This document shows, piece after piece, positions 6,072-62,206 of a stretch of 64,000 nt of DNA (the first letter of the stretch is position 1; each line of letters starts with the position of its first letter). This DNA comes from a virus. The position numbers and the translations under genes are program-made. The stretch covers positions 32,242-96,241 of the IMG/VR virus record IMGVR_UViG_3300045988_076196; one strand, given 5' to 3'. The notes beneath the pieces were generated by a model. The model searched no databases. It was not told where the DNA came from and saw nothing but the letters and a program-made list of their open reading frames with translations.

Positions 6072-6321
6072 ATAATGTACCATCCTCATTTAATCTTGGC
6101 GTGATAGCAGCGCCTCTAGGACGAGCATATGCTTCACCACCCACGACAATATAATTAACACCTGTTTCTTCATCTACTACTGTCAGCACATCATATAAGC
6201 CATTGGTGTTCTCAGCCCAAATCTTGACTGGACGATTCTGTTCTGCACCAACCATCGTAATGCTGCAAGCACCAAGAACGATACATAAAACCATACAAGC
6301 GATAATTGCAATTCGTTTCAT
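6058..6321 (-). CDS. putative lipoprotein
   Basis: MKRIAIIACMVLCIVLGAC has a signal peptide plus an LGAC lipobox; aaaggag RBS. Confidence 0.6.
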   Translation of the reverse strand: MKRIAIIACMVLCIVLGACSITMVGAEQNRPVKIWAENTNGLYDVLTVVDEETGVNYIVVGGEAYARPRGAAITPRLNEDGTLYVTK

Positions 6322-6588
6322 CTATTCTTTCTCCTTTCGCTTCTCAATCACTTTCTTTACTTTATCCTTACATTCATCAGGCACTCTATATTCATCTGCA
6401 AAGCCGCCCATTTCCATTAGATTATCTGGCTCGTCTCTGAACATCCTGAGAAAAGCCATATAATCCTTTCCGGTTGTTAGCTTATATGCTTTCATTTGTT
6501 GTTCACGACGCTCCAACCAATCCACTATATCACGCAACGCTTTACGATATGCTTTGATGTATTGCAGTGGGATTTCATCAGTATTCAT
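6322..6588 (-). CDS. hypothetical protein
   Basis: 88-aa ORF; ATGA start/stop overlap with the upstream gene. Confidence 0.55.
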   Translation of the reverse strand: MNTDEIPLQYIKAYRKALRDIVDWLERREQQMKAYKLTTGKDYMAFLRMFRDEPDNLMEMGGFADEYRVPDECKDKVKKVIEKRKEKE

Positions 6589-6929
6589 ACTGGTTTCATC
6601 AACATCAATGTTCCGCGCAAAATTCCATTATCCTCATATTCATATTTGATACAATTTCTATCTTTGATACCTTCCATCAAGTCGTTGAAAATATGTGCTT
6701 TAGCCAGTTCTATGCTAACTTGTAGGTCGATATGCCCAATAGAATCAACACAATATTGTGATCTAATCATTTCAACAGGTCTTGTTATTTTAATAAGAGT
6801 TCGCTTATATTCATTACATTTGATACATGGCGCGACATAACCGCCCAGTTTTCTAATCATCCAACGTTTGAATTTAGTCCACATTTTTCTATACTCTATA
6901 GTTACAAAATCCACTTGGTTTAGGGTCAT
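6585..6929 (-). CDS. hypothetical protein (alternative start ATG 6884)
   Basis: 114-aa ORF; the 6929 start would overlap the upstream frame 6889..7128 by 41 nt; MWTKFKRW at 6884 begins 4 nt after that frame's stop. Confidence 0.5.
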   Translation of the reverse strand: MTLNQVDFVTIEYRKMWTKFKRWMIRKLGGYVAPCIKCNEYKRTLIKITRPVEMIRSQYCVDSIGHIDLQVSIELAKAHIFNDLMEGIKDRNCIKYEYEDNGILRGTLMLMKPV

Positions 6930-7128
6930 CTAGTCCAAATCTATTAGAACAATACGGTACGTTTTCATCGTTCATCCCAAAATATTCACAATCCTTACAC
7001 CTAACAACTGGAACAGCGTCAACGGTCGAGCAATTTCACAGAAAGTTGAGGATGCTGTGTCGTTCTTTTGCATCAAGAATGTGTTCGGACACCCACTTGG
7101 CTTCTTCGTCAGCATCAATCAGCCGCAT
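6889..7128 (-). CDS. small conserved-looking phage protein with one in-frame TGA (codon 31)
   Basis: MRLIDADEEAKWVSEHILDAKERHSILNFL-TGA-NCSTVDAVPVVRCKDCEYFGMNDENVPYCSNRFGLDDPKPSGFCNYRV; the ATG overlaps the Lar stop (ATGCGGCTGA). Confidence 0.45.
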
Positions 7129-7322
7129 TTATCAACTCCCCTATTCCATGCTTCGACCGCTTCAAGATATGCGTTCACGTTCCATGCCGTTTTCAGCGAA
7201 ACGGATGTCCCGCATTTTCTACATTTTACTTTAAGTAGCATAATTTTCTTGCCGAAATTACATGAACCTCCTATTTCGTCTACCTCCCCACCGCAAAACG
7301 GGCATGGTTTTAATTTAGCCAT
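7119..7322 (-). CDS. lar: Lar-family restriction alleviation protein
   Basis: MAKLKPCPFCGG ... CRKCG ... AVEAWNRG, the typical Lar zinc-ribbon pattern. Confidence 0.7.
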   Translation of the reverse strand: MAKLKPCPFCGGEVDEIGGSCNFGKKIMLLKVKCRKCGTSVSLKTAWNVNAYLEAVEAWNRGVDKCG

Positions 7323-7338
7323 TCGTCAATCAATCCTT

Positions 7339-8016
7339 TCAGCAATCAAACTCAAATACGATGCGCACATCATCTTCTGTGCCGCCATCTGGAATAAGCT
7401 GTCTCAGCCCTTCCATCGTTTCATCATAGAACCAAGACGCGCATTCTCTATATGTAATTGGCGCAAAATAGCAAGCGGTATAATATTCCTTTGATTCGTC
7501 TCTTGGGTATTCACCATTGATTAAATCAACCATTTCTGGCTCGGTTAATTTGACAATGTTGCGTCCCCATATATCACCACTATAAGAATTTGGTTGCTTT
7601 CCTTTCATAATATAATCACGGTATGTGGCTTCGTCAACATAACCGTATTTTCTGTGCAACTGCTCCCAATCATATTCGTGCAACTCTCTCAGTGTAAGCC
7701 AAGAGCCATAACCATATTCATCGCTAAACAACACGTCATTTTTAGACATATCATCAGGATAACCCTTTAACTTCGAGATCGGCTTGAACCGTTCACCGGT
7801 TCTACATCCAGCAAATCCTTCTCCATTTCTAACTCCTGCCAAAATAGCAAACAAGTTATAATTTCTACTATCATCAGGTTTACTCATATATTCTTCTGTT
7901 GCCCATTTCTTATCTGAAGCTGGGTTATAATATGGATTCTTAAAGACTTTGAAAGTTGATAGCTCCCATGCACCATTACGCCGCACCTCGGCAATCATAT
8001 TAATATCTGTTCCCAT
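7339..8016 (-). CDS. hypothetical 225-aa protein
   Basis: long ORF in an operon; no motif recognised. Confidence 0.6.
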   Translation of the reverse strand: MGTDINMIAEVRRNGAWELSTFKVFKNPYYNPASDKKWATEEYMSKPDDSRNYNLFAILAGVRNGEGFAGCRTGERFKPISKLKGYPDDMSKNDVLFSDEYGYGSWLTLRELHEYDWEQLHRKYGYVDEATYRDYIMKGKQPNSYSGDIWGRNIVKLTEPEMVDLINGEYPRDESKEYYTACYFAPITYRECASWFYDETMEGLRQLIPDGGTEDDVRIVFEFDC

Positions 8017-8433: not shown

Positions 8434-8894
8434 TCCTTTTCTTCCAATTCTCTAATCAATCTATCAATATACCATCTTGCCTTTTTTACATCTTCAATCC
8501 CATTCTTTTCTTCATAGCGCCAAAGATATTTAATGACATTGGCTGTGCATACTGCCTCAATCCCCGTCTTACTTACGGTTGCGGCTTTGAGTGCGTCAAT
8601 ACATTCAATACCGCCCTGAGTGTAGTGAGACGGATGGTTGACCATATCAGCATTTAGCTCTTTGCCACAGTATTTAGCTTCAGCGTTTTCATAAGCTGTC
8701 AATTTAAGCTCTTTATACCAGTTATAGCATTTGTTAAGCATATTGTCGCTCATTTCATCAAAGACACAAGCATATGTATCTGTATATTCATCAGTTTCTT
8801 TATCGTATTTCTTTGACAATGGACACTCCGTGCAATTAAATGTTTTATCGTCGCAATAATTGTAAAGAACAGTTTCTTTTTCTTTTCTTGTCAT
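8430..8894 (-). CDS. DUF3310-domain protein (T7 gp1.7-like)
   Basis: HPSHYTQGGIECIDA ... KYLWRYEEKNGIEDVKKARWYIDRLI. Confidence 0.7.
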   Translation of the reverse strand: MTRKEKETVLYNYCDDKTFNCTECPLSKKYDKETDEYTDTYACVFDEMSDNMLNKCYNWYKELKLTAYENAEAKYCGKELNADMVNHPSHYTQGGIECIDALKAATVSKTGIEAVCTANVIKYLWRYEEKNGIEDVKKARWYIDRLIRELEEKE

Positions 8895-9128: not shown

Positions 9129-10271
9129 TTATTCATCCTCCTCATTTTCATCACAATCTGCATTTACGAAATGGACATCTACGTTAAAAATTTCTTTCAA
9201 TACATCAATAGCCTCTTTTGGCTCGATGCGGAAAAATTCTCTATCGGGGTTGACCCGCTCTTTGTCAAAATATTTGTGGATATTATTTTCTAGCTCAAAG
9301 CAATCATCGCTAAATACGAAGCAATGAGCATGATATGGCTCTGGCAAGCTGCTAGAGCTGAGTTCGCGAACCCTCAATGCAGGATTCAATCTTCTGGTGC
9401 AACCTAGCTTTACCAATCCGGGCAAACTTGGTGATGTGATTACATATAGCCAACCAGCTTTACTATGTGACTCACGATAAGCAATAGAATCAAGTCGCTT
9501 ATCAATACTAGCTAATTGAGATTTAATCCTATTACGCTCATCATCTGTTAGTGCTTTATCAAAGGCAATATTCATTGCTTTCTTTTCTTCCAACAATTTC
9601 GCGCGTTCTCTAGCAATATCAGCAAGCAACTGCTCCTGTTCTCTTAATCTGCGCTTTTCTTCACGGATTCGCGTCTTTTCTTCTTTTTGCTTAACTTTAA
9701 TAGCCAAGTTAATATCAAGCATATCAAGCCGCGCTTTTACATACTCAGCATTAAGCGCCAATCCGACTTTATTTGCTTTAGACTGATAAGAATTAAATTT
9801 ATTCTTAATCAATTCTTTACTTTTAGCAATATTGCCTGTTGTTACAGATTTTTCTTTACTGTCAATATATCCGGACATTGCGTAGCACAAGCCTCTACCG
9901 TACACGTCCTGCATTTCTTTGCCACGTCTATTTGAACCATTTAGAGTGTATCCTTGCTCTATACGATATAGTCCAGTACTTACGGCAGATTCGATTTTGT
10001 CTTGTAACTGATAACGCCGATGTTCGAGTTCATCCAATGAATCTTGGTAATATGGAATATTATAATCCTGCATTTCTTCAATGGTATGAATTTTGCCATT
10101 TAGAGCATCAAGGACAGATTGAGCTGCTTTTGCAGATCGCATGGTGTTTTCATATTGATACGCCGCAATTTGCCGATGTTCGTCATAGTTATCAATCTCT
10201 GCTTGTATACTAGAAATATCTGCTTTAAGTTGAGCAATCTGTGCTTCAAGCTCTTTCTTTTTCTTGTTCAT
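9129..10271 (-). CDS. DUF4041 coiled-coil plus T5orf172 (GIY-YIG-like) domain protein
   Basis: C-terminal GWLYVITSPSLPGLVKLGCTRR ... REFFRI; ATG 10271 chosen, track start is TTG 10310. Confidence 0.65.
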   Translation of the reverse strand: MNKKKKELEAQIAQLKADISSIQAEIDNYDEHRQIAAYQYENTMRSAKAAQSVLDALNGKIHTIEEMQDYNIPYYQDSLDELEHRRYQLQDKIESAVSTGLYRIEQGYTLNGSNRRGKEMQDVYGRGLCYAMSGYIDSKEKSVTTGNIAKSKELIKNKFNSYQSKANKVGLALNAEYVKARLDMLDINLAIKVKQKEEKTRIREEKRRLREQEQLLADIARERAKLLEEKKAMNIAFDKALTDDERNRIKSQLASIDKRLDSIAYRESHSKAGWLYVITSPSLPGLVKLGCTRRLNPALRVRELSSSSLPEPYHAHCFVFSDDCFELENNIHKYFDKERVNPDREFFRIEPKEAIDVLKEIFNVDVHFVNADCDENEEDE

Positions 10272-10476
10272 TTTGAAAATCTCGAACACGTCTAGCTGTC
10301 TCCTTGTCAAAAATCTTGTCTATATTCTTATCAAAATCTAATGGATTGCTGCTCTTTGCTAAAATCTGCTTGGTGCTGATATTATATAGCTCGAATTGCC
10401 CATTGCCGCAATCATTGATAATCCAGCCAGTATCGTCATATTGGACTACGGCGTTAATTTTCTTTGTTCTTGGCAT
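10246..10476 (-). CDS. hypothetical protein, first gene of the leftward early operon
   Basis: 76-aa ORF; aggtgaaataa-ATG RBS; consensus promoter about 25 nt upstream. Confidence 0.5.
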   Translation of the reverse strand: MPRTKKINAVVQYDDTGWIINDCGNGQFELYNISTKQILAKSSNPLDFDKNIDKIFDKETARRVRDFQNEQEKERA

Positions 10477-10496: not shown

Positions 10497-10525
10497 ATTA
10501 TATCACATCAATTTGCACTTGTCAA
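10497..10525 (-). promoter_or_regulatory. consensus sigmaA promoter, leftward early operon
   Basis: minus strand reads TTGACA-17 nt-(TGa)TATAAT. Confidence 0.65.
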
Positions 10526-10556
10526 GCATAATTTTTGAAAAATTGATTTTTCACAT

Positions 10557-10606
10557 CAATTTAACTATTATCTACGAATGTATATGAGTAGATAATAGTT
10601 AAATTG
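10557..10606. promoter_or_regulatory. perfect 18-19-bp palindrome arms with a 12-bp spacer (operator candidate)
   Basis: (c)aatttaactattatctac 10557-10575 / gtagataatagttaaatt(g) 10588-10606; sits between divergent early promoters. Confidence 0.6.
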
Positions 10607-10682
10607 TAATTATATATTATATACTAGATATTATATCATAGAAAGTATGTAATGTCAATAGAAAAATTTTTTATTTTACCAC

Positions 10683-10711
10683 TTGACAAAGTGATGAATA
10701 TATGGTATAAT
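10683..10711 (+). promoter_or_regulatory. consensus sigmaA promoter P1, rightward
   Basis: TTGACA 10683-10688, 17-nt spacer, TGgTATAAT ending at 10711. Confidence 0.65.
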
Positions 10712-10721
10712 AATATAGTAA

Positions 10722-10783
10722 ATAAGTAAATACGTTAGTATTTACTTATACATTGTTTCTTTCTTTTGCTTCTTTTCTTTCTT
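10722..10783 (+). terminator. 12-bp AT-rich hairpin plus T-rich tract just downstream of P1 (attenuator or short-RNA terminator candidate)
   Basis: ataagtaaatac-gtta-gtatttacttat followed by acattgtttctttcttttgcttcttttctttctt. Confidence 0.4.
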
Positions 10784-10808
10784 AGAGAGTTATATATGAA
10801 AATAATAC

Positions 10809-10837
10809 TTGACATATCTATCATAATATGATATAAT
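10809..10837 (+). promoter_or_regulatory. consensus sigmaA promoter P2, rightward
   Basis: TTGACA 10809-10814, 17-nt spacer, TGaTATAAT ending at 10837. Confidence 0.65.
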
Positions 10838-10866: not shown

Positions 10867-11010
10867 TTGTGGAGCGAAATGAGCTATAACTGGTATGTAT
10901 CGGAAGATACAGAACCAGAAGTATGGGATGATGAATATGAGCCAACTGAGCGCGATTGGTCGCTTTGGATATATGGTAGTTCAGAGAATGATTTAGAGGT
11001 GATTTTTTGA
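10867..11010 (+). CDS. 47-aa acidic, Trp-rich leader ORF
   Basis: aaggaggtggtaagaaa-TTG (or ATG 10879); its stop overlaps the TTG start of the polymerase gene (TTGA). Confidence 0.4.
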   Translation: MWSEMSYNWYVSEDTEPEVWDDEYEPTERDWSLWIYGSSENDLEVIF

Positions 11011-12890
11011 GCCTACAGACGCAAGTTTATTTGCATTCAGTAGATACGTCATGCTTTTATGATGACAACGAAATGACGCTACATAGACGGCTTGTTCGGT
11101 TATATTCTTTGCGTAAGCGATGGAAGGATAGTGATAAACCAGATTGGCGTATCAAGTCTGTAAATCGTTTGCTTAAAAAAGAAAAGGTGCGACTATCTGA
11201 ATTGCTCGATGATGCAGTGAGACGAAATGAAACTAGAAAATTGCGTCAAGATGCTGTGACCGATAAAACGGTTGTTAATCTATTTGAATCTGACTTAACA
11301 CGCAGCTTAGGACTTGACCCGTTCAAGTTGACAGATGAGCTGTTCATCATTAACGTATTTTTCTTTCAGGTATTTAATAATCTAGTTCATCAAGGATTTA
11401 TTTACAATGGTGAAAAATATGTGTTCCTTACAGCATCAGCTGGACAGATAAGAACGAAAAGAGCCGTATTCGTTAAAGAATCGTCGTTTAAGCGCATTGA
11501 GCAAAAATTGATGTGCGGCTTGACCATAGACGAAATCAATGAGCGCGGAGGCATGAATCAGAATAAATTCCTTGCATATTTGGCGCTTATGAACTCTGCC
11601 ACAGATGTTTGGGAAGATTTTGATATTGACAAATCAATCGTAGTAGATGATTGGGAAACGGCTGTTCCGGGATTGGTTGATCATATTGATGGCGTATCGT
11701 ATGAGATTCGGCGCGAAATGACAGAGACGATTATTCCTCATATGGACGGATGCGGTATTATGCTCAATGAAACAACAAGAATGGTGCGTATGCCATGGGT
11801 AAAGGGATTACTTGTTACATTTCCGTTTGATAAGTTTATCAAAGAAAAATGCGGTGGCGAGGCAACAGTAACGGATATTTATGGCAATGAGCATAAAATT
11901 ATAGAGGAAGATATACGGTATATATTCACAAAAAGCCAATTCAAGCTATGGAAATTTTATGATTCGTGGAATTGTTATAAGGCGCGATTCAAAAATTTTG
12001 GATGCAATGCTTGTTATTGCAACATAGAAGAACCGTATATTCCAAAGAGCCGCATCAATTATCAGATGCTTCAAACCTTGAGTGATATGACTGATAATGA
12101 GATTGATCGCATTATTTCTAAGACTGCGCAAGAGATTGACGATGTTGGTAAAGATTATCAAGTTACTATGCGGTTACTTGGCGCAACAGAGAACAATCGT
12201 TATAAATCAGCTATGCAAGAGGCGTTGCTGATTTATCCTGAATTATTCAAAGATTCATATAATCGAGAAATTCTGAAGCAGACTAAAAAGAGCCTAGTTA
12301 AACAAGCCAAAGGTGGGCGGCTTAGAGTAAATGGGAAATATTTATTCTTAGCGCCTGACTTGTATGCGTTTTGTGAATGGCTGTTCCTAGGTGAGCAGAA
12401 TCCACAGGGACTGCTTGCAGATGGTGATGTATATACTAATCAATATCGTGATGGTGATGAATTAGCTTGTTTGCGTTCTCCGCATTTGTATAGGGAATGG
12501 GCAATTCGGACAAATAGGCGTAGCTTAGAGCTTGATTATTGGTTTGGTGGAACTAAGTGTATATATACTAGTTGTCATGATTTAATAACAAGGATAGTTA
12601 TGGCGGACTGCGACGGTGATAAATTATTGGTTGTAAAAGACCGAACATTGACAAATTGTGCGAAAAGGAATATGTCTGATATTTGTACTTTGGCATATGA
12701 TCTCAAAAAGGCGAAGGGAGGTTTGGTAAATTCAGATAGCTTATACGAAGGAATGATTAGAGCATATACCGGTGGCAACATTGGTATTTGGAGTAATCAA
12801 ATAACTAAAATTTGGAATAGCGGGAATATTACTAAGGAAGAATTGGACGTTGTAAAATGGTTGTGTTTTGAGAATAATGCAGTAATTGAT
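11007..12890 (+). CDS. YonO / cellular-RdRP-like single-subunit RNA polymerase, exon 1
   Basis: FLTASAGQIRTKRAVF (about 11424-11471) resembles the RdRP FLxFSxSQLRxxxxWF motif; LRSPHLYREW ... ADCDGD (DCDGD at 12606-12620) matches the DxDGD metal-binding motif; the frame stops at TAA right at the intron start. Confidence 0.6.
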
Positions 12891-13930
12891 TAAATGATAG
12901 TCCACTCATGCGGCAACGCATGATGTGAATGATGGTGAACTCGTAAATGCGAGGTGTGCGGAGAAATCCGTGCTAACGGTAAAACCCTAAACGTATGAAC
13001 GCATGGCAATACCGTGGCAAGATTGTGTGATAAATATTAAGATGAAAGGAGGGACAATATGAGAAAGATTAGTTTGATTGGCAAGAAATTTGGGAGATTG
13101 ACGGTTTTATCTGATGCTGGAACAAAAGGTGGTAGAACATATTCTAACTGTCTATGCGATTGTGGTAAAATGGTGGTAGTTAGTAACAAACATCTAAAAA
13201 GTGGGCATACAAAATCTTGTGGATGTTATAAAAACGAAATTATTGGCGAAATTGGTAAAATAACCGGCAAGACAAATATCAAGTATGCGCAAAAGCAAGC
13301 ACATGAAAATAATAGAAAACATGATATGTCTGGAACAAGATTGTATAGAATTTGGTTACAGATGAAACAGAGATGTCACAACGAGAAGAACGACAGGTAT
13401 CAATATTATGGCGGTAAGGGCGTTTGCGTTTGTGATGAATGGAGAGAAGATTTTCAAGAATTTGAACAATGGTCGAATAACAATGGATATAGAGATGACT
13501 TGACCATTGATAGAATAAATTCTAATAAAAATTATGAACCGTCTAATTGTCGTTGGATATCTCAAAGTGAAAATAGCGCAAGAATACATCGTGATGTGAG
13601 ATACTGGTGTATTGATGTACAAGGCGGAAGATATGCAGAATTTGACAATATTAGAGAATTTTGCAGAAATAATCCTGAGATCGCAAATGAGAATCATGTG
13701 AGATACGCTGTTAGCGGAAAATGTGAAAATCAAGGCGATATTATATTTGGCAAGTTTTAATATTTTATCACACAATAAGCTGTAACGACTAGCCCATTAG
13801 GGCGTAGCTTGTAGGTGAAATTCCTACTCGCAAAGTGCCATCCATCTCTATGAGATGAAGAGATAGTCTACTCCGACTGTTTGAGCAGTGTTAAAGTATC
13901 TCGAAAGAGACGGTATGAAGGTATGCTAAG
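12891..13930 (+). mobile_element. group I intron (td-like, IA2-type) carrying an HNH homing endonuclease; 3' boundary +/-30 nt
   Basis: begins taaatgatag after an exon-terminal U (T4 td begins taattgagg); aaatccgtgctaacgg, taacgactagcccattagggcgtagc and gagatagtctactcc closely resemble T4 td core elements. Confidence 0.7.
13059..13760 (+). CDS. intron-encoded HNH homing endonuclease
   Basis: gaaaggaggg RBS; CxC...HTKSCGC zinc cluster; DRINSNKNYEPSNCRWISQSEN (HNH_3-like); paralog of 63280..63951. Confidence 0.8.
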   Translation: MRKISLIGKKFGRLTVLSDAGTKGGRTYSNCLCDCGKMVVVSNKHLKSGHTKSCGCYKNEIIGEIGKITGKTNIKYAQKQAHENNRKHDMSGTRLYRIWLQMKQRCHNEKNDRYQYYGGKGVCVCDEWREDFQEFEQWSNNNGYRDDLTIDRINSNKNYEPSNCRWISQSENSARIHRDVRYWCIDVQGGRYAEFDNIREFCRNNPEIANENHVRYAVSGKCENQGDIIFGKF

Positions 13931-14611
13931 ACGCAATGGTTGCCAGAACGACCAAAACAAATCAATAATACAATTAAACAATATACAAAAGCCCGTGTTC
14001 CAAATTTCTTTCAATATGCAAAAGACAAAGACCCAGATACCCAAGTTGAGCCAGCCAACAATTCAACCATGAATCGTATCTCAGCTAAAATCCCTACTTC
14101 CAGAATCCGCTATAACAATAAGATTGGGAAATTTGACTGGACTATGCTGATAAATAAATCGGTCGATTATACTACTAGAGAAAATTCTTCAATCATTGAG
14201 CGGTATAATTGGTGGATATGGAATCAGCGCCGATTTGATTATGGCGATGACCCGCATATCAATGAGGATGATTTATATAAATATCGCTGCATTGCACAAG
14301 ATATAGTAGAATATAGCAACGAGCCACTAGATATTGTGGTGAATAGCCTAGTTGCTTATCTATACACAGTTAAAAAATCAAGTAATAAGAAAATGCTATG
14401 GGCTTGTTTTGGTTGGACGATTGTAGAAAATTTGAGAATCAATACAGCGCAACTTAATCCAATCTGTTCCATTTGTGGCAAGCGGTTTAAGCCGAGAGAT
14501 GTATGCCAGCATTATTGCTCAGAGGAATGTTACAAGAAAGCAGATAATCAGCGGCGCATTGAGTCGCGTGAAGCCCCACCTGTCCGCACGGGGGACATGT
14601 TAAAACAATAG
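13931..14611 (+). CDS. YonO/RdRP-like RNA polymerase, exon 2 (start approximate, 13904-13940)
   Basis: the frame is open from 13895 with no RBS and no ATG; C-terminal CSICGK...CQHYCSEEC zinc finger. Confidence 0.5.
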   Translation, partial: TQWLPERPKQINNTIKQYTKARVPNFFQYAKDKDPDTQVEPANNSTMNRISAKIPTSRIRYNNKIGKFDWTMLINKSVDYTTRENSSIIERYNWWIWNQRRFDYGDDPHINEDDLYKYRCIAQDIVEYSNEPLDIVVNSLVAYLYTVKKSSNKKMLWACFGWTIVENLRINTAQLNPICSICGKRFKPRDVCQHYCSEECYKKADNQRRIESREAPPVRTGDMLKQ

Positions 14612-14636: not shown

Positions 14637-14652
14637 CCACAATATATTGTGG
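14637..14652. promoter_or_regulatory. perfect 16-bp palindrome ccacaatatattgtgg
   Basis: seen directly, 25 nt after the polymerase stop codon. Confidence 0.5.
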
Positions 14653-14680
14653 TAGACTAATAGGGAAAGGAAAGATATAA

Positions 14681-15100
14681 TTGCATAAAAATAAATATCC
14701 TCGGCTTGGTAAAGCTGACATGAGTAAAGAGTTGCGGCGGCGCACAGGTGTTGATTCTAAGATTATTGAGCTAGTGTTAAGAAACTATCATGACATTATT
14801 CGTGAGACACTACAACATGGCGTGGAATATTCTTTGCCCGATATTGGTGTTATTACATTTCGCGACCACCCACCAAAGCCAGCTGGCGAATATTGGAACG
14901 GATTCCAAAAGCGGCGTATGTACTATCCTGACAGAATGGGATATTATCGACTAGAGTTTAAGGCTGAGAAACATATGGCAAGTGCTGTTAAAGGTGGCAC
15001 ATTGTATGGGAAAGGCGCAACTAAAGAGGAATATGATGCTTGGGTATTGGAGAATTATCCTGATAATCCCAAGTTTATGAAGGAAGAAGAAGATGGCTGA
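14681..15100 (+). CDS. HU/IHF-like DNA-binding protein
   Basis: MSKELRRRTGVDSKIIELVLRNYHDIIRETLQHG...LPDIGVITF matches the HU-fold pattern; alternative start ATG 14720. Confidence 0.6.
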   Translation: MHKNKYPRLGKADMSKELRRRTGVDSKIIELVLRNYHDIIRETLQHGVEYSLPDIGVITFRDHPPKPAGEYWNGFQKRRMYYPDRMGYYRLEFKAEKHMASAVKGGTLYGKGATKEEYDAWVLENYPDNPKFMKEEEDG

Positions 15101-16824: not shown

Positions 16825-17321
16825 TTCATTCTCTGCTAGGTGATAGCTAGTTTAGCTGTGTTAATCATGCTTGTGGGGCGATTGACCTATCTAGTAGAGT
16901 TGAATATATCTCATGTACCATGCGTACAAGGAGTTTTCAGAGCCGTGTATGGCGGCCCTTGTAAGACAAAAAAACATAACAGAGGGTGGCGCTAGATGCC
17001 CGATGGCGCTTGATAAATGGGGTTTTAATAGTTGTATCTAGGTATATACTGTAACTGCCTGTCGCTATGCCCATTGGCGGCTATGAATATCCGAAAGGAG
17101 GTCACTATTCTCTTGAATTATCCACTGGTTTATCCGAAGCATAATTAAAGAAAGGATGGTGGTCAGAGCCAATCGGCTCATATCTACAATAAGCCCAACT
17201 CAATGGGAACTGTTGTTTAACTGAATATTGAACCTTGACAAATACGAAGCAGCTGAGAGCAATCTTGGCTGCTTTGTCATATTTATAGGAAAATAAACGG
17301 AAAGGAAGGAAGTAGCAAAAT

Positions 17322-20007: not shown

Positions 20008-20157
20008 TATTTGCCTATGAAGCGGTAGCTATGTTGGTGTGTTGCCGTGGAGGCACTATTAGGGTTGTGTGGAATCCAAGTTCCAACTGAGGCTTAATCA
20101 AAAAAAGTTGAAAATAAAAACACTCAAAAAATATAAAACAAGGAAAGGAGGTTGAAG

Positions 20158-30285: not shown

Positions 30286-30314
30286 TTGACATATTTATAA
30301 CAATGTGATATAAT
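30286..30314 (+). promoter_or_regulatory. consensus sigmaA promoter inside the intron
   Basis: TTGACA-17 nt-(TGa)TATAAT; 25 of 29 positions identical to early promoter P2. Confidence 0.6.
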
Positions 30315-30526
30315 ATACATGGGAAACTTTCAACGAATATCTCCTTGTGGGAGAAGTAGAACCTCAAGCATATGGAGGAAGAAAAATCCGACCCCTATAA
30401 AATAGGGTGAACATATATTCTACTCTCATGTGAAAGCATGAGCAGACTGCTAGTAATAGTAAGTCGATATTGGCGTTGCGAACCAATATGAATACAAAAT
30501 ATTTTATACTAAAAGGAATGTTATGT

Positions 30527-31600
30527 ATGTTGTTATCAAAAGTTGTTAAGTTGAAATGGAACACAAAGAATAGAAAACATTACGAAAGTATTGGATATAT
30601 ATTTACTAAATATGGTGATGAATTTGATGTAAAAGTCGAAGATTTGACACCTTCTAGTAAAGTTGTTGTTGAGGTTGAATGTGACTTTTGTCATAGCGTT
30701 GTTGTGAAAAAGAAATATCAAACATATAATATACAGCATCACGAAAAATATGGGGATTGTTGTGCATCATGCCAATCTAAAAAGAATAAGTTGATATGTA
30801 TGGATAAATATGGCGTTGACAATGGTTCTAAGACAGAATATGCCATTGAAAAAATAAAACAAGTTAGTATGGAGAGATATGGTGTAGATAACCCATCTAA
30901 GATAAGCGATGTAAGACGCAAGTTAAGCGAAATAGCTAAGGCTAATTCAGAAGATGTTATCACTAAGAGAAATCAGACCATGCTAGAAAAATATGGCACG
31001 ACATCACCAATGGACTTAGATATTGTCAAAGAGAAACAACGTGATACTCTATTGAAGAATTATGGCGTTGAGCATCCAAAGCAAAGTGAAGAAATAAAAA
31101 TGAGAGAACGTCAACGGAATATTGAGAAATATGGTGTTGATAATCCTATGAAACTTAAATCCGTAAGAGATAAGATAAAGGCAACGTGTCTTGAAAAATA
31201 TGGCGTTGAATGCTCATTAAGCTCACCAGATGTTAGAGCTAAAATTAACAAAACATTACTTGAAAATGGTAATGTAAAAACATCTAAACAACAACTTCAA
31301 CTACAACAACTATTAAAAGAAATATATGGAGATTGTGACTTAAACAAGCCGTGTGGTTCATGCTTTCTTGATTGTGTAATTGAATATAATGGTGTCAATA
31401 TAGATATTGAATATGATGGTGAATATTGGCATCAAGATACACAACAAGATAGGCGTAGAGACGAATTTGTCAAATCACAAGGATATAAAATTCTGCGCAT
31501 TCGTGGAAGATATGACATTCCAAATAAAGAACAACTTGTGAAACATATTGAAGAATTGGTAAATTCACAACATACATTCGATATAATTAAAATGGTATAA
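30527..31600 (+). CDS. homing endonuclease: six KYG-type repeats plus a C-terminal Vsr-like PD-(D/E)XK nuclease (I-Bth0305I-like architecture)
   Basis: repeats (E/D)KYGV(D/E)NP..K about every 23 aa; C-terminal DIEYDGEYWH...RDEFVKSQGYKILRI; track start 30470 has no RBS. Confidence 0.7.
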   Translation: MLLSKVVKLKWNTKNRKHYESIGYIFTKYGDEFDVKVEDLTPSSKVVVEVECDFCHSVVVKKKYQTYNIQHHEKYGDCCASCQSKKNKLICMDKYGVDNGSKTEYAIEKIKQVSMERYGVDNPSKISDVRRKLSEIAKANSEDVITKRNQTMLEKYGTTSPMDLDIVKEKQRDTLLKNYGVEHPKQSEEIKMRERQRNIEKYGVDNPMKLKSVRDKIKATCLEKYGVECSLSSPDVRAKINKTLLENGNVKTSKQQLQLQQLLKEIYGDCDLNKPCGSCFLDCVIEYNGVNIDIEYDGEYWHQDTQQDRRRDEFVKSQGYKILRIRGRYDIPNKEQLVKHIEELVNSQHTFDIIKMV

Positions 31601-31613
31601 AATATAATTAGGT

Positions 31614-32549
31614 AATGCACTAATCGGTAAATATTATCATGATTCTGGTCTAACTGTTCAGATTACTGACTCTTGCTTCAAGCTAGAGTATATTGCGGCC
31701 AATCTTGGTGTTGATCTACAGAAGGGCGGTCTTGGTGTTTATCAGGGCGAACTGGTTGTTCAGACTGCTGGTAAGGTCACTCTACCACAGGCTCCAACCG
31801 CCGTTGCTGGTTCACTAATTGGTTGGTATCGCACTCCTAGCGAGAAGGATTATACTGTTGGTACAATTACTGAGGCGTCCGGTGTATACACAATGGAAAT
31901 TGCCAATGCTAAGGTTGGCGAGAAGTATTGTGTTATGTATTTCTATCAGAATGCTAATGCTGATAGCATTATCATTCCAGTTGACTATGTACCAGACGAG
32001 CTTCACGTCATTATTATCAATGACCTGTTCAATGCGGATATTTCCACTACGAACAATGCAACTAAGGTTGGCCGTCTAATTACTGATATTCCTAGACTAC
32101 AGCTTGATGGCGCACAAGACCTTAATCTTACTGCAACTTCCGCAGCTACTGTTTCTCTGTCTGGCTCTGCTCTAGCAGTTGACTCCACTGACTCTTGCGA
32201 GAATGAGTCTTACTATGGTACTATGACCGAGGAAGTCTTTGGCGCAAAGTGGCAGAACGAAGTAAAGGCTATTGCATTTGAGGATGCTGATATTAGCCTA
32301 AAGGCAGCTGGTAGCCAGACTCTAGTTTGCTATGTTCTATTTGACGGCAACAAGGCTCCTAAAATTGTTGACAATGCCAATTTTACATTTGCTGTCGAGG
32401 ACGGAACTGAGAATGTGTCTGTCAATGAAAGTGGCGTTGTGAATGCAATCAAGGCTGGTACAGCACATATTTCCGCAACTCTAAAGGGTGCTGACCCAGA
32501 GGTCAACCCAAGTGTTGTTGGTTATGCTGAGGTCACTGTAACCGCTTAA
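31614..32549 (+). CDS. major tail protein, exon 2 (C-terminal Ig-like Big_2 domain)
   Basis: NALIGKYYHDSGLTVQ... continues from exon 1; C-terminal VNAIKAGTAHISATLKG...GYAEVTVTA. Confidence 0.6.
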   Translation, partial: NALIGKYYHDSGLTVQITDSCFKLEYIAANLGVDLQKGGLGVYQGELVVQTAGKVTLPQAPTAVAGSLIGWYRTPSEKDYTVGTITEASGVYTMEIANAKVGEKYCVMYFYQNANADSIIIPVDYVPDELHVIIINDLFNADISTTNNATKVGRLITDIPRLQLDGAQDLNLTATSAATVSLSGSALAVDSTDSCENESYYGTMTEEVFGAKWQNEVKAIAFEDADISLKAAGSQTLVCYVLFDGNKAPKIVDNANFTFAVEDGTENVSVNESGVVNAIKAGTAHISATLKGADPEVNPSVVGYAEVTVTA

Positions 32550-59905: not shown

Positions 59906-62206
59906 TTATTCACATTTTGTCCAGCCGCACGACTTACAAATTTTGCAACCGCCCTCAAACATTACTGGTTCACCACATTCAGGGCACAGCTCTGCTGGAA
60001 TTGCAGATAATGTTTCGCTTAGCTTCTCAATACTTGCAGTAGCTTTATTAAATGCATTGGATAAGCCCTTAAAGCTACTAACAGTATCATCTTCTTTATC
60101 ATCTAGTTCACTCTGCATCTCATTATACATCTCTACTAGAGCATTGCCAATAGCCATAGGACAACAAGAGCCTTTGCTTGTATCATGGTGAGTTGCCTTT
60201 CTAGTAGCATAGGACGGGCATACACCAGTTGAATCAAGTTGGTCTTTGATGGTCATAATATCCACACCAGCACGACATAGTAGGCTGACCATGCGGCTTA
60301 GACCTGTCATGAAATTAGCGCATCCGCCTGTCGAGCCTTTATTGAAATATACTTCTTGTAGATTACCATCAATAGGGTCAAAGAATGCTAGAACATGAAG
60401 TGAGCCGCATCCTGTCTGAATTTTGCGCTTTTTGCCAATCAGGTCATTACTTGGTTCGATGATTGAGCCGCGAGGTAGAGTAAGAGATGTGGGTTCAGGC
60501 TTTGATTCATTGTCTTTCTTTGGTTCAGCATTTAGAATACCAGCCCTCTTGCATCCGGCACGATATACTGTAATACCCTTTAGATGCTTTTCCCAAGCGT
60601 ACATATATAGGTCTTTTACATCATCTACTGTTGCTTCATTTGGTAGATTGACAGTTGAGCTAATACTTGCATCAATATGTTTCTGCCATACTGACTGCAT
60701 ATCAATACGCCGCTTGATAGGAATGGTAGCAGATGTGACGAAATAGGGAGGTAGCCCAAGTTCGTCTTTAATACCATGAGCATCCATATATTCCTTGACG
60801 ATTGGTGTATATACCTTATATACCTCATCATGCCCATGCAAGGATTTTGTAGTGCGCTCATAATAGTTAGCAAAGATTGGCTCAATGCCACCTGATACGC
60901 CAATCATTGTACTGATAGAACCAGTTGGAGCAATGGTTAATAGCTGGCTATTACGCATACCGTTCATATCAATAGATAAATGAGCTTCAATATCGTCTTC
61001 TTTGATGTGCTCTGTAAAAAATGGAGATGCAGCCACCTTATATACATCCCACTTTTCGTAACATCCTTTGTCTCGTGCCACATCAGCACTAGCTACAATA
61101 GCATTACGAGCCATAGAATAGCCAATGGAATTGCATAGAACGATAGAATCAGGAGAGCCGTATTCAATACGTAGCTTGATTAGCATATCGGCTAGTCCCA
61201 TGATGCCAAGCCCAATTTGCCGCCAATCCCTAACCGTCTTGCGCTGTTCAGCTAGTGGATGCCGCTCAAGCCCCTCATCCAACACATCATTTAGTGCTTT
61301 AACTGCAATACTTACAGTTCTGTTAAAATCGTCCCAATCAAACTTACCATTACGGACAAATTCAGCTAGGTTGATTGCGCCAAGTAGACACGAGCCTCCT
61401 GCTGGTAGTGGTTCTTCTGCACAGGGATTTACACCAGCATATTCAAAATCCTTATCATTGCTTACTAGGTTCCAGTTGGTAATTCTATCCCAATAGAGAA
61501 TACCCGGTTCAGCATAGTCCCAATTATTACGGCATAACAGGTTAAAAATATCTCGCGCTTTTACTGTTTTCTTGATTTCTTCGCCTGTTTCATTGCGCTT
61601 ATAGTATAGTTCCCAATCTTCATCATTTTTAACTGCTACCATAAAACGGTCTGTAACGCGAACTGAGATATTAGCAGATGTTACTTTGCCCAAGTCGGAT
61701 TTGACCGCAATGAATTTTTCGAGGTCTGGATGGGTACAATCAATACTAATCATCAATGCACCGCGTCTACCATTCTGACCAATCTGTTCTGTTACTTGAC
61801 TGAATGTGTCCATAAAGCTGACTGCGCCAGATGTGGATTTGGCTTGATTATTGACCTTTGCGCCACATGGAGCAAGTTTACTGATGTCGATGCCGCAGCC
61901 TCCTCCATAACTATAAGTACGAGCCAGTTTTTTAGCAGTATCGTAAATTGACTCGATATTATCTTCTGGTGGTGAAATAACATAACAGTTACTATATGTT
62001 ACCTTTTCGTCATCAATGCCGCGATTGCTCAAGATGCGCCCACCAAATAAGAATTTCTTATCAGCAATAAGCTCTGCTACATCTGCATCGCCACCACTTA
62101 CACGATCAAGCCAATTTTCAAAAGATTCCCCATTACGTTGGTATTTCTTCTTCCAGATGTCAATACCAAGCTGATTTTCTTTACCTAGCCATTCTTCAAC
62201 AAACAA
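59906..62206 (-). CDS. nrdJ: class II (adenosylcobalamin-dependent) ribonucleotide reductase
   Basis: VNPCAEEPL active-site loop, TIAPTGSIS, C-terminal CPECG...CKICKSCG zinc ribbon; no beta-subunit gene nearby; TTG start 7 nt after AAGGAGGA. Confidence 0.85.
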   Translation of the reverse strand: MFVEEWLGKENQLGIDIWKKKYQRNGESFENWLDRVSGGDADVAELIADKKFLFGGRILSNRGIDDEKVTYSNCYVISPPEDNIESIYDTAKKLARTYSYGGGCGIDISKLAPCGAKVNNQAKSTSGAVSFMDTFSQVTEQIGQNGRRGALMISIDCTHPDLEKFIAVKSDLGKVTSANISVRVTDRFMVAVKNDEDWELYYKRNETGEEIKKTVKARDIFNLLCRNNWDYAEPGILYWDRITNWNLVSNDKDFEYAGVNPCAEEPLPAGGSCLLGAINLAEFVRNGKFDWDDFNRTVSIAVKALNDVLDEGLERHPLAEQRKTVRDWRQIGLGIMGLADMLIKLRIEYGSPDSIVLCNSIGYSMARNAIVASADVARDKGCYEKWDVYKVAASPFFTEHIKEDDIEAHLSIDMNGMRNSQLLTIAPTGSISTMIGVSGGIEPIFANYYERTTKSLHGHDEVYKVYTPIVKEYMDAHGIKDELGLPPYFVTSATIPIKRRIDMQSVWQKHIDASISSTVNLPNEATVDDVKDLYMYAWEKHLKGITVYRAGCKRAGILNAEPKKDNESKPEPTSLTLPRGSIIEPSNDLIGKKRKIQTGCGSLHVLAFFDPIDGNLQEVYFNKGSTGGCANFMTGLSRMVSLLCRAGVDIMTIKDQLDSTGVCPSYATRKATHHDTSKGSCCPMAIGNALVEMYNEMQSELDDKEDDTVSSFKGLSNAFNKATASIEKLSETLSAIPAELCPECGEPVMFEGGCKICKSCGWTKCE

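Follow-up and report, generated by a model that had tools for sequence, protein, structure and literature searches.

A putative YonO-type RNA polymerase cassette in a gut metagenome phage and a conserved downstream element that may be its late promoter

The DNA analyzed here is a stretch of 64,000 nucleotides (nt) of the IMG/VR virus record IMGVR_UViG_3300045988_076196 (positions 32,242 to 96,241), referred to below as the window. The gene at 11007-14611 on the plus strand is, judged by its sequence, a YonO-type RNA polymerase, a further member of a known, characterized and populous family named after the enzyme of phage SPbeta. The region is very probably the polymerase cassette of an SPbeta-like siphovirus of a gut metagenome lineage. 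Just downstream of the gene lies a conserved 11-mer, ACTAATAGGGA (14656-14666, +), which is a candidate for the promoter and start site of YonO-class polymerases, a proposal for which we judge the chances evenly balanced. To our knowledge, YonO-type enzymes are the smallest known relatives of the cellular multi-subunit RNA polymerases. They serve as models for the ancestor of those enzymes, and what has been missing for them is promoter recognition. The window itself adds one family member, and the interest lies mainly in the motif after the gene: the family is abundant in gut phages, and about 70 diverged loci yielded a positionally fixed motif.

The cassette would work as follows. The sigma-A RNA polymerase of the host would initiate at tandem promoters (10683 and 10809) and make an early message encoding a 47-amino-acid (aa) open reading frame (ORF) and the polymerase. 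Self-splicing of an intron would join position 12890 to 13922. The spliced message would yield a single-chain, two-barrel DNA-dependent RNA polymerase of 857 aa, in which D534, D536 and D538 would hold Mg2+. As for SPbeta YonO, the enzyme would transcribe the late genes to its right, a block that begins with the HU-like gene (14681) and extends to about 57 kb. Late transcription would most likely begin from a single start site, for which the 11-mer is the candidate.

The polymerase gene, its predicted fold and its intron

Three plus-strand ORFs lie within 11007-14611, of 628 aa (11007-12893), 233 aa (13059-13760) and 223 aa (13940-14611). An earlier note on this DNA had described the first and third as parts of one split ORF, and both are present as described, with an HNH endonuclease ORF between them. 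They form a single gene of two exons, 11007-12890 (residues 1-628) and 13922-14611 (residues 629-857 and the stop codon), separated by a probable group I intron of 1031 nt. The spliced protein aligns end to end with SPbeta YonO (839 aa), 46% identical in 815 columns, with no break where the exons join and with exon 2 collinear with the YonO C-terminus. The earlier note had likened the length to that of YonO, which holds for the spliced protein, although it put YonO at about 820 aa. A tblastn search with exon 1 matched SPbeta yonO (47% identity over 100% of the exon 1 length, E 3e-172) and the yonO genes of phi3T, SPR and Goe11-14 (E about 1e-172), with further homologues in Clostridium phage D-1873, Psychrobacillus phage Perkons and Enterocloster phages. 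The first ORF matches the N-terminal 644 of the 847 positions of phrog_8308 (E 3.5e-214), and the third ORF, or exon 2, matches positions 651-845 (the C-terminal 195). The sole Pfam match of the polymerase is RdRP (RNA-dependent RNA polymerase, PF05183; 37 bits, cut-off 23.8), and no NCBIfam model matches it.

The identification as a YonO or eukaryotic-RdRP-like polymerase had been made in the earlier note from hallmark strings of the two-barrel RdRP/YonO lineage. All three are present: YVFLTASAGQIRTKRAVFV at residues 138-156 (nt 11418-11474), LRSPHLYREW at residues 489-498 (nt 12471-12500) and MADCDGDKLLVVKD at residues 532-545 (nt 12600-12641). The identity to YonO, the Pfam match and the fold matches given below bear the identification out. 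The same note called such polymerases barely characterized, which is not the case: YonO was characterized in 2017 (Forrest et al., 2017; PMC5467207), and its family is large and already annotated in GenBank. Its remark that their promoters are unknown agrees with the literature consulted, the YonO promoter sequence having been left open in that paper.

Residue conservation was judged over 54 homologues of 60-93% identity. Invariant among them are D534, D536, G537 and D538, the stretch R490, S491, P492 and H493, and A145, G146, I148, R149 and K151 of the SAGQIRTK stretch. A C-terminal Cys4 cluster in exon 2 (C810, C813, C827, C831) is also invariant. The three aspartates of the DCDGD motif (nt 12606-12620) align with FDNDGD of YonO. 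In QDE-1, the barrel A residues R962 and P964 (Rpb1 R446 and P448) and D1007 have been listed (PMC2919709). The spacing from R490 to D534 is 44 and from P492 to D534 is 42, against 45 and 43 from R962 and P964 to D1007, so that R490 and P492 of LRSPHL are probably the equivalents of R962 and P964. For barrel B (QDE-1 R738, K743 and D709), the invariant basic residues R149 and K151 lie under the Pfam RdRP alignment, which does not fix equivalence at the level of residues.

An AlphaFold2 model built on the 54 homologues has a mean predicted local distance difference test score (pLDDT) of 86.3 and a predicted template modeling score (pTM) of 0.80. Foldseek of the model against the PDB gave 21 matches at E ≤ 1e-3, all of them RDR2 of maize or Arabidopsis or fungal QDE-1 (E from 2.7e-19 for the best to 5e-13, probability 1.00, TM 0.45-0.54), with 11-13% identity within the structural alignments. 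The earlier note had named a primase or helicase as other folds that such a search might return, and neither is among these significant PDB matches. Beta-prime and Rpb1 chains appear among the PDB matches at E > 0.05 only. BFVD, the database of predicted viral structures, returned as its best matches phage proteins that carry the name RNA-dependent RNA polymerase (E 6e-35). Crass-like phage proteins are weak matches there (E 6e-5 to 3e-4), and two rows named 'DNA helicase' are fragments of crAss-like phage proteins. Searches of PDB sequences with the single protein and with the 54-sequence profile gave no match, and no YonO structure is deposited; QDE-1 and RDR2 are reachable solely through fold comparison. 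The predicted fold is that of the QDE-1/RDR2 class with two double-psi beta-barrels, as assigned from matches of the model taken as a whole.

The intron occupies 12891-13921 (+). The T at 12890 precedes the 5′ splice site, the intron ends on G 13921, and 13922 is the first base of exon 2. Removal of the intron restores the reading frame, with the junction NAVID|YAKTQW after codon 628. The joined sequence follows YonO (...ENNAVID to YAKTQWLPERP... in the window, ...ENNFTID-FAKTLFMPTRP in YonO) and the intron-less protein P0001 (856 aa, 93% identical, junction NAVID-CAKTQW). At the DNA level, the two intron-less loci of P0001, L003 and L004, follow the window at 87-88% identity to 12891 and resume at 13925, with nothing between. 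An ORF-less homologous intron (L094, 11889-12151) reaches 53.1 bits in Rfam, where the cut-off is 50, and is 77-82% identical to the ribozyme parts of the window. From the intron-less alleles, Rfam and homologous introns, we infer that 12891-13921 is a self-splicing group I intron that would also splice in vivo. The ORF within it (13059-13760, +; 233 aa, with its own ribosome-binding site) encodes a putative HNH homing endonuclease. It matches the HNH endonuclease profile phrog_374 (E 3e-64) and phrog_3377 (E 6e-38), has no Pfam or NCBIfam match at E ≤ 0.01, and is missing from the ORF-less versions of the intron.

A similar interruption occurs in the yonO_1/yonO_2 genes of Bacillus phage vB_BsuS-Goe11 (MT601272), at exactly the codon used in the window (...TID in Goe11, ...VID here). 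The Goe11 intron also starts with TAAAT..ATAGTC, ends with G and holds an internal ORF. It differs in having no blastn similarity to the window intron beyond the first few bases and in encoding a 300 aa product, as opposed to the 233 aa HNH protein here. An intron-split yonO is already in GenBank in this phage, though it is not discussed there. The recurrence of introns at a single conserved codon, between genes that share just 46% identity, is a clean case of homing-site conservation in an essential phage gene.

Two side observations concern the intron site. Protein P0005 is 68% identical to the polymerase overall; by eye it is near-identical in the exon 2 part (13922-14611) and far more diverged in exon 1, which suggests a recombination breakpoint near the intron. 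In addition, members of the YonO family in a library clustered at 50% identity often start or end near query residues 314-328, 402-416, 534/535 and 628. These points include the catalytic DxDGD motif itself and suggest several intron or intein sites, or gene splits.

A few points weigh against the reading of a spliced, active, DNA-dependent polymerase. The window intron scores 26.6 bits against Rfam Intron_gpI (E 2e-4), under the cut-off, because its 702 nt ORF interrupts the covariance model, and its P1 pairing is unconvincing with 3-4 bp only. Residues 90-148 hold no invariant acidic residue (D110/E111 are semi-conserved), and a counterpart of QDE-1 D709, the fourth Asp that two-barrel polymerases universally carry, is not placeable from sequence alone. 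Activity, template preference and timing would all carry over from a homologue, YonO, of 46% identity. The low Rfam score, the stop codon at 12891-12893 that breaks the frame and the roughly 1 kb that intervenes could also mean that the gene is a disrupted pseudogene, its polymerase inactivated by a mobile element. However, both exons are intact and conserved, the junction is the collinear sequence of the intron-less alleles, and the boundaries obey the group I U|...G| rule. The ribozyme halves are kept in relatives that carry different ORFs or none, one of which passes the Rfam cut-off, and the same site is occupied in Goe11, a viable phage. A pseudogene is hardly credible on this evidence. 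The other alternative is an RNA-dependent RNA polymerase that acts on RNA templates, like QDE-1 and RDR2. The lone Pfam match is named RdRP, the closest solved structures are RNA-dependent, and relatives in phages Perkons and PMBT24 are annotated as RNA-dependent RNA polymerase. Against this, YonO is a processive DNA-dependent RNA polymerase with a strong preference for DNA templates and is needed for late-gene transcription (Forrest et al., 2017; PMC5467207). The window protein is 46% identical to it versus 11-13% to RDR2 and QDE-1, and its gene heads the late block of a DNA phage. We regard an enzyme dedicated to RNA templates as very unlikely, and return to a DNA-dependent polymerase of the YonO type.

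The conserved element downstream of the polymerase gene

The 11-mer lies 45 nt after the polymerase stop codon and 18 nt upstream of the HU-like gene, with its GGG at 14663-14665. We compared the sequences that follow the polymerase gene in a set of motif loci made up of the window, SPbeta, 23 loci from genomes and metagenome-assembled genomes (MAGs) and 78 from IMG/VR, reduced to 71 that were non-redundant. Related motifs occur at the same place after yonO in most of these 71 diverged loci. The form of the gut clade is aACTAWTAGGGAAa, and that of the Bacillus/SPbeta clade is TAAT-N7-TTTAAGGGRGA. A+T-rich positions on the upstream side of the GGG are conserved as well, reading ACTAWT for one clade and TAAT-N7-TTTA for the other. 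The pattern ACTAWTAGGGR has 29 matches in 109 loci (about 3.7 Mb counting both strands, by our own estimate), all of them on the plus strand, and 27 lie 40-170 nt after the polymerase gene. The other two are within the yonO intron of L082 (11996-12006) and L057 (13064-13074). In both, ACTAATAGGGA stands 17 nt upstream of the intron's own, different endonuclease ORF of 266 aa.

In a leave-one-out analysis that scanned both strands of each complete locus, the top-scoring matrix match fell within 260 nt after the stop codon in 41/71 loci, where 0.68 were expected. A scan of both strands of the window with a matrix built from 26 non-close relatives returned the site as the best match (18.5 bits, runner-up 11.8). 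Within the window the motif occurs a single time, in coding-strand orientation and where the rightward block begins, which speaks for a single late start site. Between the polymerase stop codon and the motif, an inverted repeat can be read from the sequence, CCACAA-TATA-TTGTGG (14637-14652, +). It is kept in close relatives with loop and stem changes and has no T-run after it.

Related copies are found in SPbeta, in locus L001, at 8613-8627, about 9243 and 9403-9421. The form TAATAGTCATTTATGAGGG lies inside the amplicon of the mapped start site: the copy at 9403-9421 is within the primer-extension amplicon, for which the published primers are at 9282-9305 and about 9498-9524. The G run of SPbeta TTATGAGGGTG is at L001 9419-9421 (NC_001884 complement 60434-60436). 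The published YonO start-site coordinate is B. subtilis 168 position 2225998 (PMC5467207). A rigid matrix from 12 Bacillus-clade loci was tried and missed the SPbeta copies because their spacing differs by 1-4 nt. A gapped pattern recovered them, with five matches, all on the plus strand (1.46 expected; 2/200 shuffles reach five). The SPbeta repeat TCATTTATGARGGT was also sought in the window, where its matches are at chance level.

In the Bacillus clade, the sequence that follows the motif may be structured. When the sequences are folded singly, the 5′ GGG pairs with a CCC further downstream in 12/14 loci, with modest z-scores. This 5′ stem, which starts from the conserved GGG, is at 8625-8676 in L001, with equivalents in L018, L019, L026, L029 and L089-L107. 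Its sequence differs between loci around a conserved CTRAT...AAGAGR core. No consensus structure emerged when RNAalifold was applied to the Bacillus-clade leaders aligned with MAFFT, and we take the leader structure as a hint only.

Several observations weigh against a promoter. The 18.5 bit score of the window is equalled by the best of 30 mononucleotide shuffles, and the motif loci are related to one another. In about 30/72 instances, no more than 30 nt separate the GGG from the start codon that follows, and in many gut-clade loci the motif abuts the ribosome-binding site. The mapped SPbeta start is about 800 nt downstream of the first motif copy, after yonN, and both the window candidate and that first copy precede the yonN or yonN-like gene, unlike the mapped start. 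With a real polymerase, ACTAATAGGGA could instead serve the HU-like gene as a translation signal or leader, mark a site of RNA processing or bind another factor, and the true late promoter would be elsewhere, e.g., in the 16825-17321 gap. The start-codon distances, the SPbeta start and the shuffles all speak for such an element, and we hold it to be a serious possibility, somewhat short of an even chance. On the other side, over 60 nt separate the motif from the following gene in 33/72 instances. TAGGG[GA]A occurs just three times on the plus strand of the 64 kb window, which argues that it is not a general ribosome-binding site of this phage. The conserved A+T-rich positions upstream of the GGG, the related copy inside the SPbeta primer-extension amplicon and the identical 11-mer ahead of the intron-borne endonuclease ORF in L082 and L057 also fit a promoter better.

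If the element is indeed the promoter and start site of YonO-class polymerases, one copy would drive the whole late block of about 42 kb, and transcripts would begin at the GGG. In the Bacillus clade, transcripts would begin with a 5′-terminal stem (GGG...CCC). Some yonO introns would have captured the element, giving late expression of their homing endonuclease. The resemblance to T7-class promoters, an A+T-rich stretch and then GGGAGA, would be convergent.

Early promoters and the late block

The 64 kb window holds six perfect extended sigma-A sites (12/12 with TG), and four of these are within 10497-10837, two per strand. On the plus strand, the distal promoter (10683-10711) reads TTGACA-17-TGgTATAAT, and the proximal one (10809-10837) lies 198 nt upstream of the polymerase start. 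Both are 12/12 sites with an extended -10. The divergent pair on the minus strand (10525-10497 and 10658-10630) is equally perfect and would drive leftward early genes. The distal promoter has a perfect plus-strand counterpart at a similar distance in L003 and L004. The position of the proximal promoter is kept more widely, with a consensus or near-consensus plus-strand site 164-199 nt upstream of the polymerase in 12 relatives (L003-L010, L013, L015, L016 and L021). SPbeta has an 11/12 sigma-A site at -289. Divergent consensus promoters are also found in relatives.

The earlier note had two perfect promoters here, which stand, with the polymerase as the first gene after them, which it is not. 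A 47 aa acidic ORF (10867-11010, +; MWSEMSYNWY...) comes first. It is preceded by a strong ribosome-binding site, AAGGAGGTGG, and its stop codon overlaps the polymerase start codon. This ORF separates the proximal promoter from the polymerase gene, which is thus the second cistron of the early message. A small ORF with the motif W-x-E-M-S-Y is at the same position throughout the gut-clade loci. Profile searches, including Pfam and NCBIfam, placed the 47 aa ORF in no known family; its product may be a partner of the polymerase. In at least 10 IMG/VR contigs, several with lengths of 65-90 kb, the sequence starts 120-1100 nt ahead of yonO (L033, L044, L048, L050, L055, L056, L065, L070, L078 and L084). 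A genome end or a repeat is probably located in the divergent promoter region, at about 10.5-10.8 kb of the window.

Around the polymerase, the gene order is that of SPbeta: small ORF, yonO, HU-like yonN, yonJ-like exonuclease, YonG-like gene and portal. The tape measure gene follows the portal, and all genes are on the plus strand to about 57 kb. The gene in the yonN position (14681-15100, +) encodes a putative HU-like DNA-binding protein (Pfam Bac_DNA_binding, 25.3 bits, cut-off 22.4; phrog_379). The earlier note had noticed no comparable sigma-A promoters in front of the structural operons (14.6-57 kb) except inside introns. This is roughly correct: the lone 12/12 plus-strand site, at 30286-30314, is about 155 nt upstream of a homing-endonuclease ORF (30470-31600, phrog_12131), and Rfam found no intron around it. 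Another perfect 12/12 site, with an 18 nt spacer, lies antisense within the yonJ-like exonuclease gene (16753-16724, -).

In SPbeta, 37 late genes are silent without YonO and form a single operon with a start site upstream of yonK, and the Asp triad of YonO is catalytic and essential (Forrest et al., 2017; PMC5467207). By homology and gene context, the window enzyme would be the late transcriptase of its phage. It counts against this role that the early message and the late block have no clear intrinsic terminator between them, so that read-through by the host polymerase is possible.

The late block holds several other features. A drum RNA (Rfam RF02958, 49.7 bits, cut-off 43) is at 20012-20128 (+), in a 144 nt gap between a 560 aa ORF and the portal gene. 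A 230 nt insertion relative to the close relatives L003 and L004 is at 16856-17085 (+) and has no blastn match among phages. A sequence within it, CTCATGTACCATGCGTACAAGGAGTT, recurs almost unchanged in the SPbeta late leader (L001 about 10262-10290). A non-coding block upstream of the YonG-like gene (17086-17287, +) is 91-96% conserved, as against about 88% for flanking coding DNA, and contains a long imperfect hairpin, TGACA..AAGCAGC...GCTGCTT TGTCA. In L004, the yonJ-like and YonG-like genes are separated by an inserted gene for an IS605-type OrfB/TnpB (6259-7368).

Comparison with known systems

The cassette is most like that of SPbeta. The polymerases share the Asp triad, the RSP and SAGQIRTK motifs and the C-terminal Cys cluster. 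Both genes have a small ORF and a host-type promoter upstream and yonN, yonJ, yonG and packaging/structural genes downstream. SPbeta infects Bacillus subtilis, whereas the phages here are from gut metagenomes, with contigs of about 80-115 kb. The SPbeta gene is unsplit, while that of the window is split by a group I intron. The small upstream ORF of the window is not recognizably related to YonP, and its upstream promoters differ in being perfect and duplicated. SPbeta has a 1.7 kb non-coding leader between the HU-like gene and yonJ, which the window lacks.

QDE-1 and RDR2, the closest solved structures, also carry the DxDGD loop and, at a corresponding distance from it, the R-x-P motif. They differ in being RNA silencing enzymes that act on RNA or single-stranded DNA templates. 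The gp66 protein of crAss-like phages is likewise a single-chain phage polymerase with two barrels and belongs to the same broad lineage; it was absent from the top 50 PDB structural matches. It is a much larger virion protein that is injected with the DNA. The window polymerase, in contrast, has 857 aa and is under host promoters, and hence would be made after infection.

Two further parallels concern the motif. In the td intron of phage T4, the endonuclease I-TevI is expressed under phage late promoters, an arrangement that the 11-mer and endonuclease ORF of L082 and L057 resemble. The T7 and T3 promoters, TATAGGGAGA and TAAAGGGAGA, resemble the A+T-rich stretch and GGGAGA of the motif in their -5 to +6 part. 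YonO is, however, unrelated to T7 RNA polymerase, and the spacing of the upstream TAAT differs.

The nearest relatives of the window are from human gut metagenomes and from MAG bins of inconsistent taxonomy, and so point to no particular host. A near-identity DNA search against 50,697 phage records found no close record, only a 60 nt piece of the intron 3′ core in Bacillus myoviruses. At the protein level, the family is large: in a set clustered at 90% identity, more than 4,137 proteins reach E ≤ 1e-10, a lower bound because at most 8,000 candidates were scored. In the library clustered at 50% identity, 324 clusters reach E ≤ 1e-30 and 837 reach E ≤ 1e-10, and IMG/VR contains 409 YonO-family loci.

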